Below, piece by piece: positions 31,365 through 40,568 of a DNA stretch of 64,000 nt. The notes below the pieces were generated by a model, which saw only the letters and a program-made list of their open reading frames with translations, did not search any database and was not told the DNA's origin. Each line of letters opens with the position of its first letter. Position 1 is the stretch's first letter. The stretch is from contig JBDRSV010000024.1 of NCBI GenBank assembly GCA_043824495.1, forward strand, positions 96,001-160,000, given 5' to 3'. Made by a program: the position numbers and the translations under genes. The DNA comes from Candidatus Aenigmatarchaeota archaeon (lineage in GTDB: Archaea > Aenigmatarchaeota > Aenigmatarchaeia > QMZP01).

Positions 31365-31445
31365 GAGTTAAGGCTTTGCACAAAAACTCTGTTTTACACA
31401 AAAACTGTGCTTAGCCTAAAAAATTCAAGAAAAAGGAGGTGAAGC

Positions 31446-31664
31446 GTGAAAAAGGTTAAAAGTTGGAAATCTAAAGATAATAATATGATGATTACTCCAA
31501 GATTAGTGTTAATGTTCATTTTTGGACTTATTGCTATTTATGGTCTTTTTGCTGCTCTTAGTCCAGAAAGGTATATAATTCCTCTAGTTTCAGGTGAATT
31601 TGCACAAATTATTGGGTTTATTATATTTATCATAGCAGGTTATTTTTTTGTTAGGTTTAGATAA
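31446..31664 (+). CDS. Small two-TM protein (transposon cargo)
   Basis: SD GGAGGTGA; hydrophobic. Confidence 0.6.
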   Translation: MKKVKSWKSKDNNMMITPRLVLMFIFGLIAIYGLFAALSPERYIIPLVSGEFAQIIGFIIFIIAGYFFVRFR

Positions 31665-31929
31665 TATGGACAAAATACAACTTAAAAAGAATAAGATAGA
31701 TCTGGAAGCTAGATATATAATGCAAGAAAGAAATGCTATTTTATTGGCCCTCCCTGCTTTACCATTAACTTCTTTTAACTTGGGTTTGTTTGTAGGTCAA
31801 CTTGATCCATTAGTCTCTGCATTCATTGCTTTGGTTGTTTTTGAATATCTTTATTTTATTAAGCTTCATTTTGATCGAAAATTAAAGGATAAAATAAAAG
31901 AAATTGATGATCTGATGAGAATTACCTAA
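31648..31929 (+). CDS. Small two-TM protein (transposon cargo)
   Basis: Hydrophobic core with charged ends. Confidence 0.6.
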   Translation: MLGLDNMDKIQLKKNKIDLEARYIMQERNAILLALPALPLTSFNLGLFVGQLDPLVSAFIALVVFEYLYFIKLHFDRKLKDKIKEIDDLMRIT

Positions 31930-31990
31930 GGCGAATTCTGACCAAAAACCCTTGCATTGATTTATATTCCTTTCCAACTAATTCTTTCCT

Positions 31991-32644
31991 ATGACAAAAC
32001 CAATCGCACTATCGGCAAGTAGCATAAGACTTTTCCTAGAGTGCCCTCGATGCTTCTGGCTGCATATAAACAAGAAGGTAAGAAGGCCTTCGGGAGCTTT
32101 CCCATCGTTGCCAGCGGGTATGGACAAGATACTCAAGATACACTTTGATGAGTACAGGGAGAAAGGCAAGATACCAAAAGAGCTAGAAGGCAAATTCAGC
32201 GGCAAGCTTTTTGGTGATACAGAAATATTGGGTGTGTGGCGTAACAACAGAAAAGGGCTAAGACATACAGACAAAAAGAGTGGCATTATTCTCATGGGAG
32301 CGTTAGATGACCTCTTTGTCACCAATAATGGACAGTTTGCACCATTGGACTTCAAAACAAGAGGCTATCCCCTCAAGGAAGACACACATGAACACTATCA
32401 GCACCAGATGGACATTTACTCATATCTTCTAGAAAAGAACAACATGAAGACTGCAGGCTATGCAATACTCATATTCTACCATCCGAAACGTGTTACAAGC
32501 ACATGCAATGTTGAGTTTAATGCAGACCCTTTGAAGGTGAAGACCAGCATAAAGGACGGTGAGAAGATATTTTTGGATGCTGTAAAATGCCTTTCGGGGA
32601 AAGAGCCCAATCCTGGCAAGGACTGTGGGTTTTGTAGATGGTGA
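31991..32644 (+). CDS. PD-(D/E)XK (RecB/Cas4-like) nuclease
   Basis: LS.S....F..CPRCFW, G.LDDL, DFKT, Q...Y, C-terminal CGFC. Confidence 0.9.
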   Translation: MTKPIALSASSIRLFLECPRCFWLHINKKVRRPSGAFPSLPAGMDKILKIHFDEYREKGKIPKELEGKFSGKLFGDTEILGVWRNNRKGLRHTDKKSGIILMGALDDLFVTNNGQFAPLDFKTRGYPLKEDTHEHYQHQMDIYSYLLEKNNMKTAGYAILIFYHPKRVTSTCNVEFNADPLKVKTSIKDGEKIFLDAVKCLSGKEPNPGKDCGFCRW

Positions 32645-32751
32645 TTCAAATCTATTTTCAGTGTCAAACAAACCTATTTAAATAAAACAGACCACTTTCT
32701 ATTGGAACTAATTAAATATATACCAACTGAAACCAATAATTAATAGTTCAT

Positions 32752-33384
32752 ATGCTTATGGACGAACGAAAACCAGAAATAAAAATTGTAGATAGGTCAT
32801 TCTTACTTTACCTTCTATCGAAGGCCCAAGAAGCTAAAGCAGAATTAGGTAGAACCTTATTACAGAAATTTGTTTTCGCTACTGAGGTTACTACGAAAGG
32901 AAAGGGTGGTGGAGGGCTAAATTATTATATTTATAAATGGAAACATGGTCCATTTAGCAAAGAGCTTGCACAAGATAGAGAAGTTCTTCTAAAAAACAAT
33001 TTAATAACAGATAGTAATGAACTTACAAAAGAAGGGCATAAAATATTATCATATATTAATCCCATTGTTGATAAAGATTCGGAATCTAAAGCCGTAATAA
33101 GTGTAATAACTAAAACTCTTTCTGGGAGAAGCTTGTCTCATATATTAGAAATTATTTATAAGTCCGATTTTGATCTCCCAAATGGGAAAAGAATGAAAAT
33201 AAAGACAATACCAGAGGGGACTCCAATGATTTTCAGATCGGAAGAACGAGATGTTAAAAACAGATCTCTCTTCACAGAATCTACGATAGAAACACTGGCC
33301 ATAATGATGAATAAGGAAAAACATTCTTCTCTTAAGAAAGCCATGTCAATGCCGATGATAGGAGAATTCAAATATGATATATGA
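32752..33384 (+). CDS. DUF4065/SocA-like antitoxin
   Basis: GRT.LQK.VF, Y..W.HGPFS.EL. Confidence 0.7.
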   Translation: MLMDERKPEIKIVDRSFLLYLLSKAQEAKAELGRTLLQKFVFATEVTTKGKGGGGLNYYIYKWKHGPFSKELAQDREVLLKNNLITDSNELTKEGHKILSYINPIVDKDSESKAVISVITKTLSGRSLSHILEIIYKSDFDLPNGKRMKIKTIPEGTPMIFRSEERDVKNRSLFTESTIETLAIMMNKEKHSSLKKAMSMPMIGEFKYDI

Positions 33385-38356: not shown

Positions 38357-38426
38357 TTCATAATCTTAATGTTTGATTAATATTTATATGTTATTTATAT
38401 ATTCTTTTTCTATCTTATTAACTAAT

Positions 38427-38645
38427 CTATAGTTTCCAATAAGTAACTCCACCTCTGGTTTTACCTCTAGATAAGTACCCGCGTTTAAATAATCTCTTAA
38501 GTGTTTTATCTGCACTATGCCAACTCATTTTCGTTCTTTTCGCTATCTTATTTGTTGTTATGGGTCTCTGGGTTCTTCTAAGAAGATTAAGTATAGCAGA
38601 TTCCTTTGGACTGAATCTTGAATGTCCGTTTACCATTTTAATCAC
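38427..38645 (-). CDS. Winged-HTH transcriptional regulator
   Basis: IL..L......TTNKIAK....SWHSA.K.L..L...GYL. Confidence 0.75.
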   Translation of the reverse strand: MIKMVNGHSRFSPKESAILNLLRRTQRPITTNKIAKRTKMSWHSADKTLKRLFKRGYLSRGKTRGGVTYWKL

Positions 38646-38904
38646 GCCTTATCAACTTGAAGCTGACTTTAATATCTTTCTTGTCCTTAAGTGGAATTGG
38701 AGTTTCTACAGTATACTCTAAAAGATCTTCTTCAGAGAATTTTATTGCATCCGATATCTCTCTTGGAAACCTCACGAAAAACAAGTCTCGTGAGTCCTTG
38801 CTTATTTTTGCTGATTTTGTTATAATCTCTTTATCATATGGGAGCTCTTTTTCCAGTGATCTCTTTTTTTCAGGTTTTTCCCATTGTATGTTTTTTCTTC
38901 CCAT
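38638..38904 (-). CDS. AbrB/MazE-like protein
   Basis: AKI......FFVRFP.EI...I......L. Confidence 0.6.
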   Translation of the reverse strand: MGRKNIQWEKPEKKRSLEKELPYDKEIITKSAKISKDSRDLFFVRFPREISDAIKFSEEDLLEYTVETPIPLKDKKDIKVSFKLIRRD

Positions 38905-39082
38905 ACTTAATATATTGCATGTGTTCTTTATAAAAGTTATGGTGTATTTTTAAAGCTTTGTATGCAAAATGCAAACCTTTATAAGGATAAACATTCTAAA
39001 TTACATATGTAACTTACAAACTCATAAAATATAAGGAGGTGATAACGAGACTGGCGATAAGGTATAACTTCGCCAGTCTCTC

Positions 39083-40093
39083 ATGCTTATGAAAACGAAA
39101 CAACTTACTTTAGATCGAGACTGGAGCCAATATAACTTGGCCCAAACACAGGAGAAACTTCTATTCATGAGAATACTGAGTGATGCCGTTAATTCCATGA
39201 ATATAGAATATACATACAAAGGCAACGGAAGACCAAGCATAGGCATAGAGGACATGATAAAAGTCCTCGTGATAAAGGTTTTCAACGGCTTCTCGCAGAG
39301 GAGGACAATACCAGATTTGTATATGGCTAAAGGTTTAGGCTACATACCTGAAGTCCCACACTTCAATTCCATAAGCAACTACTTCAACAGCACTGAATTG
39401 ACTTATTATCTTGAGCAGCTCTACAGGATATTGGCTATGCCATTCATTCCTATAGAACAGTACTTTGCTATCGATTCTACTGGTTTTGGTAAATACAATA
39501 CCAATTGGACTGCCAGCAAATATAAAAACGCAAGCATGAGAAGCTTCAACAAGCTGCATATAATATGCGGAGTGCGGACAAACATAATTGTGATAGCTAA
39601 AGTGACAGATGCACACCAACACGATTCTCTTCAGTTTCCTAAGATGCTTAAGGAGACATGCAAAATATTCACAGTAAAAGAGATCTCTGCAGACAAAGGA
39701 TATCTAGCACTCTATAATGTGAATGCAGCTAAAGAATTAGGCGTAGTACCCTACATAATGCCCAAGAAGAACACAAAGTTATATTCCAAAAAGAGATGGG
39801 TGGATGGAGAGGCATGGGATAGAATGGTACTCATGTGGAGACATAAAGAGGAAGAATTCAGAAAACACTACCATCTGAGATCGAATGTTGAGAGCAGCTT
39901 CTCAATGATGAAGAGGAAGTTTCTTCCTTTCATAAGGAGTAAGAACCCTATTGCACAGAAGAATGAAATTCTGGCTAAGGTTGCTTGTCACAATATATCC
40001 GTTCTTGTCCACTCAATCTTTGAATTGGGTTTAAACATAGATTTTAAAAATATAGATTCAACAGATGAAAGGAGGGAATATTATGACGCCTGA
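39083..40093 (+). CDS. tnp: DDE transposase, IS4/IS5-like superfamily
   Basis: AIDSTG, KLH, ADKGY, Y..RS.VES.FS..KR. Confidence 0.92.
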   Translation: MLMKTKQLTLDRDWSQYNLAQTQEKLLFMRILSDAVNSMNIEYTYKGNGRPSIGIEDMIKVLVIKVFNGFSQRRTIPDLYMAKGLGYIPEVPHFNSISNYFNSTELTYYLEQLYRILAMPFIPIEQYFAIDSTGFGKYNTNWTASKYKNASMRSFNKLHIICGVRTNIIVIAKVTDAHQHDSLQFPKMLKETCKIFTVKEISADKGYLALYNVNAAKELGVVPYIMPKKNTKLYSKKRWVDGEAWDRMVLMWRHKEEEFRKHYHLRSNVESSFSMMKRKFLPFIRSKNPIAQKNEILAKVACHNISVLVHSIFELGLNIDFKNIDSTDERREYYDA

Positions 40094-40499
40094 AGAAGGG
40101 ATGAAAATATTAAACCAGTATCTAAGTGATATGAATAAATTAAGGGAGAAAAGATATTATGAGGGTAAAGATGAATTAAACTTACTTGATAGAAAAATAA
40201 AAACTTTCATAAATAGAGTTTTCCCAGATTATGAAGAAAGGCAGAAAGACTATTATAGAACTGTACATGCTTGGTTTATTGCTACAATGCATGAAGAGAC
40301 AGAAGAAGAAAAACAAACGGATTACATGAATCAAATAAGAAAAATGACACTATTTGTCAATACTTTGTTGGATGAATTACAAGTTTTTGGGTTGGCATCA
40401 GAAAAATTTGGACCAACAAAAACTGAGACAGAAAAAGAAATAAGCGGTGGAATTCCAGGCATTCTAAAAGGTAAATACAAACGAACTAAAAGCGAATAG
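40065..40499 (+). CDS. Hypothetical protein (transposon cargo)
   Basis: 144-aa ORF ending just inside the right TIR. Confidence 0.65.
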   Translation: MKGGNIMTPEEGMKILNQYLSDMNKLREKRYYEGKDELNLLDRKIKTFINRVFPDYEERQKDYYRTVHAWFIATMHEETEEEKQTDYMNQIRKMTLFVNTLLDELQVFGLASEKFGPTKTETEKEISGGIPGILKGKYKRTKSE

Positions 40500-40568
40500 T
40501 AAAAGGTTTTTGTGCAAAGCCAAGAGTTAAACATAAACTATAAATAAAAGAAGATACAAGAAGTCCAC

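Follow-up and report, generated by a model that had tools for sequence, protein, structure and literature searches.

How does a segment of more than 9 kb, bounded by short perfect inverted repeats, filled with probable defence genes and served by only one transposase of an insertion sequence (IS) type, come to sit in the genome of a DPANN archaeon? The question is raised by positions 31372-40521 (9,150 bp, 9.15 kb) of a 64,000-nucleotide stretch of a Candidatus Aenigmatarchaeota genome (assembly GCA_043824495.1, contig JBDRSV010000024.1, positions 96,001 to 160,000), which we call the window. An initial annotation had described this segment as a cargo transposon with exact terminal inverted repeats (TIRs), a target-site duplication (TSD) and a defence arsenal. 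Our analysis indicates that it is very probably a unit transposon, or 'transporter IS', run by the single DDE transposase at its right end, an IS5-family protein resembling those of the IS903 group.

The ends are as they had been described. The repeat on the cargo side (left inverted repeat, IRL; GGCTTTGCACAAAAAC, 31372-31387, + strand) has a terminus that recurs in relatives and is complementary at 16 of 16 positions to the repeat on the transposase side (right inverted repeat, IRR; 40506-40521, - strand), which is its exact reverse complement. Immediately outside lie two identical 9-bp copies of AAGAGTTAA, read directly from the sequence at 31363-31371 and 40522-40530. A repeat finder returned this pair as the sole perfect inverted pair in the region, and by our calculation perfect 16-bp inverted repeats no more than 10 kb apart, with identical 9-mers on their outer sides, would be expected by chance far fewer than 1e-6 times. 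With up to three mismatches allowed, the TIR 16-mer has five matches in the window against 0.71 expected, and none of the shuffles reached five. One of these five, at 31390-31405 (13/16 to the TIR), covers the sub-terminal repeat that had also been noticed initially, a direct repeat of the inner TIR motif (TTTACACAAAAAC, 31393-31405, +) that lies at +24 from the tip and is a predicted second transposase-binding site.

The transposase gene (39083-40093, +; 336 amino acids (aa), PF01609 E=1.2e-17) is intact and is the only copy in the source assembly (1.01 Mb, 29 contigs, 80% complete), where the exact TIR 16-mer occurs twice, both times as an end of the element. The element is therefore single-copy and is not bounded by two IS copies. 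What is found is the arrangement that defines a transporter IS or unit transposon, namely a single transposase and passenger genes within one TIR pair with the TSD outside; the second IS copy that would bound the cargo of a compound transposon is missing, the genome having one transposase and one TIR pair. Since the 9-mer is duplicated on both sides, the left flank, rich in GC, and the right flank, rich in AT, must have adjoined each other before insertion. We also note that the 10 kb to the left (21371-31371) has a GC content of 47.5%, compared with 34.0% for the 10 kb to the right (40521-50521), placing the element precisely on the border of a block of foreign composition. Composition was rejected as a sign that the element itself is foreign: at 33.7% GC it equals the right-hand host backbone, and the contrast stems from the GC-rich island on the left.

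The best curated model for the transposase is NCBIfam NF033579 (IS5_2; E=5.6e-31), with 108 bits compared with a cut-off of 140 bits, and its nearest annotated plasmid relatives are ISEc35 and IS903B, at about 25% protein identity. When 23 archaeal sequences (the window protein and 22 homologues) were aligned with IS903B and ISEc35, D131, D204 and E270 were invariant, as was the signature Y-x2-R-x3-E-x6-K (Y263/R266/E270/K277). Once a 15-residue longer annotation is corrected for, the three acidic columns coincide with IS903 positions 121, 193 and 259, which we take to be the published catalytic residues. Extracted for comparison, IS903B is 1,057 bp long with an 18/18 terminal repeat (GGCTTTGTTGAATAAATC), and ISEc35 (in L181) is 1,051 bp long with a 9-bp TSD; 9 bp is also the target duplication of IS903 (PMC12670165). 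The archaeal ends open with GGCTTTG like that of IS903B, and the end of L176 equals the IS903B end at 15 of 17 positions by our count. Taken together, the shared catalytic residues and termini mean that the chemistry and end recognition are IS903-like, whereas size and content are not: with 9,150 bp and about 13 open reading frames (ORFs) besides the transposase, the window element is IS903-type in its working but no insertion sequence in the strict sense. A more distant sub-clade (L021 998-2197, L155 15719-16999, L163 15734-16945 and others) has transposases of about 410 aa with an N-terminal extension of about 90 aa that the 336-aa window protein lacks; the extension bears a C-x-C-P-D...C-K-H motif, SWIM-like zinc finger by eye, with no Pfam call.

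The window element belongs to a larger set. At least 1,854 homologues of its transposase were found, with Nanoarchaeota, Woesearchaeota and Aenigmarchaeota among the source names; genomes of the window's relatives measure 0.5-1.9 Mb, and an intein-bearing inositol-phosphate synthase is encoded near the element. An archaeal (DPANN) host is thereby supported. A phylum-wide search of 371 genomes detected the transposase in 44, most of them with a single copy. A first scan of homologues showed the same terminus just downstream of the transposase and no left end within 1.5 kb. With larger flanks, every locus of this first set resolved into a long element with that terminus and its own perfect 9-bp duplication. 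A further 20 loci and 10 more from multi-copy genomes were screened, a TIR and an exact 9-bp duplication being required, and two loci labelled bacterial were added from a TIR scan (L065, Pyrinomonadaceae; L077, 'Omnitrophota'). This gave 26 delimited elements: that of the window, 23 in other DPANN genomes and the two with bacterial labels. The 25 further elements (L017-L024, L150-L178, L065, L077) all have GGCTTTG-type ends and a 9-bp TSD, with a different 9-mer each. Elements of the main set (n=24) have a median length near 4.7 kb; the shortest measures 2,576 bp and the longest 15,644 bp, the window element coming second in size, and in all delimited elements the transposase lies at one end and reads toward it.

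No bare IS of 1.1-1.4 kb occurs among the delimited elements; because long contigs were chosen, such forms are to be regarded as not found rather than as proven absent. Homologues on contigs of 1.2-1.6 kb (L168, L169, L197, L198) show a right end immediately behind the gene and no left end in the 40-400 bp upstream, and about ten loci (L149, L154, L158-L162, L164-L166) could not be delimited by a TIR and an exact TSD. Thus the idea that this was an unusual, cargo-bearing element of IS type is borne out as far as a unit with defence cargo is concerned, but not as a one-off, since the whole sampled transposase clade consists of cargo carriers. Searches of genome and viral contigs with the transposase, and of viral contigs with the Cas4-like cargo gene, reach only close relatives and gave no match. 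The exact 16-mer TIR scan of genome contigs returned mostly noise (about 280 chance matches are estimated in 596 Gb), with a transposase nearby at only 4 of 120 loci.

Several observations concern the bacterial labels. The exact 16-mer TIR is strikingly frequent in assemblies of Pyrinomonadaceae (Acidobacteriota; many loci among L028-L147), and L065 1068-5772 is a 4.7-kb member from this group that is flanked by a 9-bp duplication, shows triple direct sub-terminal repeats and carries TPR cargo; with this member, the family spans both domains. The second case is less straightforward: L077 148-4700 (reverse complement; 161-4713 on the + strand) and L148 (G214:C2) agree in their element end and in the 9-mer that flanks it, TATTCCCTA, yet the L077 contig is titled 'Candidatus Omnitrophota bacterium' and the L148 genome belongs to the DPANN phylum set, so that one of the two bins is probably mis-assigned.

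The design of the ends is itself distinctive. Over the outermost 60 bp at either end, the inner portion of the TIR recurs: as direct copies at +24 and usually +44 at the cargo-side end (extra copies were scored in 22 of 24 elements), and as inverted copies at +34 and +54 at the transposase-side end of roughly half of the elements. Motif density is accordingly 1.5 and 1.2 per 100 bp at the two ends compared with 0.18 per 100 bp in the interiors. The window element has the +24 copy at its left end and none scored at its right. In the pair L018 and L023 the left 53 bp are 89% identical, while the transposase genes are 66% identical at the nucleotide level and the cargo differs; conservation of the ends beyond that of the transposase genes and cargo points to selection on these sites. 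The sub-terminal copies may be additional transposase-binding sites that tell left from right, as in Tn7 or Mu.

Mobility can be followed in two close family members. The 3,835-bp element of L021 (genome G041) is represented by an empty site in a genome of the same genus: in G057:C78 its two flanks (the left 84% and the right 95% identical) are joined by a single CGACTGACC with nothing between, from which insertion of the element with a 9-bp duplication follows. A further genome, G059, likewise lacks it. The second case is a marine element encoding the protein P0100. In six contigs, recovered from different samples, a 3,557-bp stretch comprising the transposase, a MazE/AbrB-type gene, a 217-aa PD-(D/E)XK nuclease and three more ORFs is 99.97% identical, and the right end of the element adjoins at least three unrelated flanks. 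Such identity, cargo included, in at least three settings implies that cargo and transposase of this element move together and have done so recently.

These data suggest how the window element would work. The transposase would bind the 16-bp terminal repeats together with the phased sub-terminal copies of the motif, pair both ends and excise or copy the whole 9.15-kb unit; at insertion, staggered cuts 9 bp apart would be made, and their repair would yield the duplication of AAGAGTTAA. Travelling between the ends would be a type IIG enzyme, a Panacea/RelE-like pair, a Cas4-like nuclease and a ParB-like protein, and addiction or defence cargo of this kind should aid the persistence of the element after landing. 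A divergent operon beside the transposase gene, encoding an 88-aa protein and a winged helix-turn-helix (HTH) protein and conserved in relatives, probably regulates transposase expression.

A rather different history, in which the left end is a leftover, was also considered: the element could be a decayed compound transposon whose left IS was deleted down to the outer repeat, or a one-off capture by way of a chance surrogate left end. There is precedent for the former, since IS903-group elements carry cargo as compound transposons, documented in Tn903, Tn602 and TnaphA1-pIE545, and their capacity for cargo capture has been called poorly known (PMC12670165). A weak TIR-like motif near 38955 had moreover been put forward as the possible left end of an original IS. 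This motif, however, agrees with the TIR at only 10 of 16 positions, a level at which we estimate about 30 chance matches in 9 kb, and the module of 88-aa ORF and winged-HTH gene that L019 and L153 also possess runs left past 38955 to 38427, across the presumed boundary; the old end was rejected on both grounds. The element contains no internal end within three mismatches of the TIR, its left end has the family-specific cargo-side design with the direct repeat at +24, the corresponding ends of L018 and L023 have stayed alike despite differing cargo, and the single-transposase layout is common to all 26 delimited elements. We consider a compound or surrogate-end origin very improbable. More improbable still, to the point of being hardly credible, is a remnant of an integrated plasmid or virus, or an assembly chimera, with an IS at one edge and repeats that arose by chance. 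The match of the Cas4-like gene to the phage family phrog_31195 would fit such a remnant, and so would the sharp GC boundary at the element (47.5% left, 34% right), but a perfect 16-bp inverted pair with identical outer 9-mers is not made by chance or mis-assembly, the same architecture recurs at 25 other loci, and relatives on viral contigs were not found. Profile searches of the ORFs of the window element revealed no integrase, replication or capsid gene, nor a Cas1 or PolB domain, and the earlier statement that this is not a casposon holds.

The alternative that deserves most attention is that of a dead relic, a transposon in structure that is now immobile and whose cargo has become host genes. 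We judge this unlikely, although it is considerably easier to entertain than the other two. The element is single-copy, its GC content is that of the host backbone, and neither an empty allele nor a second site was found; yet the TIRs match at 16 of 16 positions and the TSD at 9 of 9, the transposase has an uninterrupted frame and its full set of catalytic residues, the restriction-modification (R-M) gene is intact, and close family members show recent mobility. Several points nonetheless weigh against a unit transposon of IS903 type that is at work in the window. Being single-copy and compositionally like the host backbone, the window element may be old or inactive. For the empty junction, reconstructed as ...GGGATAT-AAGAGTTAA-ACATAAAC..., the exact 26-mer was not found in metagenome contigs, and neither was a 28-mer of the left end of the element; the gene on the right flank has no homologue in 40 relatives, a genome of the same genus included, and the search for an empty allele of this copy was thus negative in those relatives and in the metagenome contigs alike. 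The score of the transposase lies below the curated IS5 cut-off of NCBIfam, and its putative binding to the sub-terminal repeats is deduced solely from their position. The recent movement proposed at the outset is accordingly plausible from the perfect ends, but the missing empty allele and the match in GC content (33.7% and 34.0%) do not add to it. On balance we retain the reading of 31372-40521 as a unit transposon.

Two kinds of unusual arrangement were seen elsewhere in the family. At three unrelated loci (L020 12943-12975; L017 15684-15720, equal to L025 11047-11085; and L040 7092-7125), two family elements lie head-to-tail with exactly one element's 9-bp duplication between them. This abutment suggests an insertion preference beside the end of a related element; a third copy of the 9-mer was not seen in the stretches examined. 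At L149 (G235:C6), two right-end-like termini at 11778 and 17740 lie 6 kb apart in the same orientation and are followed by almost identical flanks (t/c-aagaaaac); no left end turned up, and the pair may be a duplication involving an element end.

Between its ends, the window element is densely packed. Two small overlapping ORFs (72 and 93 aa; 31446-31929, +) without a family match are followed by a 217-aa Cas4-like PD-(D/E)XK nuclease (31991-32644, +), supported by PF12705 (4.6e-08), phrog_31195 (1.7e-44) and PADLOC Cas4 (7.6e-09). This protein is 48% identical (2e-63) to the 217-aa cargo nuclease of the marine family member L199. Next comes a pair of genes overlapping by 4 nt, which encode a Panacea/SocA-like putative antitoxin (210 aa; 32752-33384, +) and a RelE/ParE-like putative toxin (132 aa; 33381-33779, +). 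The former has an ESM atlas feature score of 0.95, a TM-score of 0.84 to a cluster with PF13274 on 20% of its members, and a PADLOC match to PDC-M19A (3.5e-06); the latter has a feature score of 0.93 and TM-scores, with the by-query value first, of 0.70/0.78 to toxin clusters and of 0.62/0.81 to a cluster that is 99% ParE_toxin. Pfam hidden Markov models gave no match to either protein, even at E<=5, and the DUF4065/RelE-like pair of the initial annotation draws its support from ESM atlas features and structure. We treat 32752-33779 as a lead to a toxin-antitoxin pair of Panacea/RelE type.

On the opposite strand, two small ORFs (77 and 101 aa; 33817-34379, -), the larger with weak zinc-ribbon matches under curated cut-offs, precede the longest gene of the element (34385-37111, -; 908 aa). 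Its product is predicted to combine an N-terminal HSDR_N nuclease, a gamma-class N6-adenine methyltransferase and a TaqI_C-type specificity domain on a single polypeptide, which is the organisation of a type IIG restriction-modification enzyme. Pfam profiles (Eco57I 7.8e-38, N6_Mtase 1.4e-33, TaqI_C 1.9e-17, as well as MmeI_Mtase and HSDR_N) and PADLOC REase_MTase_IIG (1.2e-93) agree with this assignment, the methyltransferase motifs I and IV (DPACGSG and NPPY) are in place, and the frame has zero internal stops. Beyond it lies a 339-aa protein with a ParB-N-terminal-like region and an HTH (37249-38268, +), a candidate defence or partition-like gene that matches PADLOC PDC-M38A (1.1e-19) and PD-Lambda-5_A (2.6e-08) and ParB-like families of PHROG; there was no match to the Pfam ParB model and no PDB sequence match. 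The type IIG, Cas4-like and HTH genes that had been listed as cargo are thus backed by profiles, the ParB-like gene by those of PHROG and PADLOC only.

Between the convergent ParB-like and winged-HTH genes lies an 87-nt GC-rich element (38270-38356, +) in AT-rich surroundings. It is predicted to adopt a multi-stem fold (minimum free energy -44.2 kcal/mol, z = -4.14 versus shuffles), matches no Rfam family and is single-copy in the source genome; a role as bidirectional terminator or small RNA is conceivable. The winged-HTH protein (72 aa; 38427-38645, -) has MarR/HTH-type Pfam matches and 57% identity to L019 2370-2591, and L153 also has a homologue; placement and direction with respect to the transposase are alike in all three. 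The winged-HTH gene overlaps by 8 nt the conserved 88-aa ORF (38638-38904, -), which reads in the same orientation and shares 63% identity over 87 aa with the L019 counterpart (1.8e-34) and 42% with that of L153 (2e-13). The 88-aa ORF has no Pfam match. It is probably the gene that had been called AbrB, a label for which no profile match was obtained; we note that in the marine member L199 the corresponding position is occupied by a MazE/AbrB-type (PF04014) gene. A 98-aa ORF on the + strand (38657-38953) was rejected as a shadow of the conserved antisense 88-aa ORF. Between the transposase and the right inverted repeat, finally, is a 144-aa ORF (40065-40499, +) that has no profile match and is not conserved in relatives.

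Across the family only the transposase is universal. The cargo, to judge from its domain content, is dominated by DNA methyltransferases and restriction nucleases. Among the 145 non-transposase ORFs of 24 elements, Pfam recognised N6_N4_Mtase in five, N6_Mtase in four (three with Eco57I/TaqI_C), and C5 DNA_methylase, D12 methyltransferase, Vsr, GmrSD_N (once with HNH) and NYN in two each; domains seen once include Tsp45I, a type I S subunit, AAA_14-DUF4143, DUF488 and an integrase. A DNA methyltransferase is present in at least 10 of the 24 elements. Homologues of the window's type IIG gene are cargo in L155 and L156, and one of its ParB-like gene is cargo in L176. In two elements of one genome, L171 and L173, the transposases are 80% and the ends 91% identical and there is no cargo in common, from which it follows that cargo turns over faster than the backbone diverges. 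The 15.6-kb element, L017 56-15699 (G055:C2), contains a second, divergent DDE transposase, a tyrosine integrase, two C5 methyltransferases and two copies of Vsr, together with BsaWI, GmrSD and SIR2-like genes (BsaWI and SIR2_2 being known from precomputed annotation), and is apparently a nested or accreted defence island within one transposon.

These results invite a broader proposal, that the elements form an undescribed cross-domain family of IS903-related unit transposons, recognised by ends of GGCTTTG type that are asymmetric and multi-site, by a 9-bp duplication and by cargo in every member. It would be a main vehicle for R-M, toxin-antitoxin and other defence genes among ultra-small DPANN archaea and also among Pyrinomonadaceae bacteria, and the phased sub-terminal sites would let a simple IS-type transposase handle units of 3-16 kb. 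In this full form we regard the proposal as evenly balanced. A description of the family was not found in the open-access full-text literature, where absence is not proof of novelty; a clade of IS903-like transposases that works as cargo unit transposons and spreads R-M, toxin-antitoxin and nuclease genes in DPANN archaea is apparently undescribed, but it involves no new principle. Its interest lies partly in the hosts. In DPANN archaea, genomes are about 1 Mb in size, recognised mobile elements are scarce, and R-M systems are comparatively few and are reported to be under-represented (PMC12988326). The family offers a vehicle defined in sequence by its ends, duplication length, transposase and empty site, which has repeatedly taken up methyltransferases, restriction nucleases and toxin-antitoxin genes. 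A compact single-protein system that moves up to 15 kb might also serve as a genetic tool in archaea for which there is none at present.

The concepts of the transporter IS and the unit transposon are established (PMC9330008), and the archaeal elements resemble these types in having one transposase, passengers inside the terminal repeats and a TSD around the whole unit. They differ in that the cargo consists of defence and addiction genes and not of resistance or metabolic genes, and in that every examined member of the clade is cargo-bearing; neither this transposase clade nor DPANN hosts nor an all-cargo clade was found described in the open-access literature. The transposon-like R-M units of Xanthomonas and Neisseria (Furuta et al., 2010; PMC2853133) likewise hold R-M genes, including type IIG, within terminal inverted repeats; a short target duplication accompanies them, and a relative has the empty site. 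However, they have no transposase of their own, their duplication is 8 bp and they are bacterial; no archaeal case passed the screen of that study.

Tn7-like transposons (Benler et al., 2021; PMC8649781) share with the present elements a large, variable, defence-rich cargo and several transposase-binding repeats that are asymmetric between the ends. They depend, however, on TnsA/B/C(+D/E) machinery, make 5-bp duplications and select their targets, whereas the window element relies on one DDE protein of IS5 type, its duplication is 9 bp and a target consensus is not evident. Casposons and the 'aloposons' of Asgard archaea (PMC8813620) are, like the window element, archaeal integrated mobile elements with cargo. 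The former are characterised by Cas1 and PolB and the latter by the giant Otus/Ephialtes genes and integration at tRNA genes; neither set of features is present in the window element, and an identity as an aloposon was rejected.

The closest comparison remains the IS903 group (IS903B, IS102, IS602, ISEc35), with which the archaeal elements have in common the DDE_Tnp_1 domain, the D-D-E and YREK residues, GGCTTTG termini and the 9-bp duplication. An IS903-type element is about 1.05 kb long, has a single gene between two 18-bp repeats, one at each end, and can carry cargo only where two copies form a compound transposon. The archaeal elements, in contrast, measure 2.6-15.6 kb, of which 1.5-14 kb is passenger DNA, use a single transposase and have 2-3 phased motif copies per end, arranged differently at each end. 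A minimal textbook type of IS thus has relatives that are cargo transposons with multi-site ends, which bears on where the boundary between insertion sequences and transposons is drawn.

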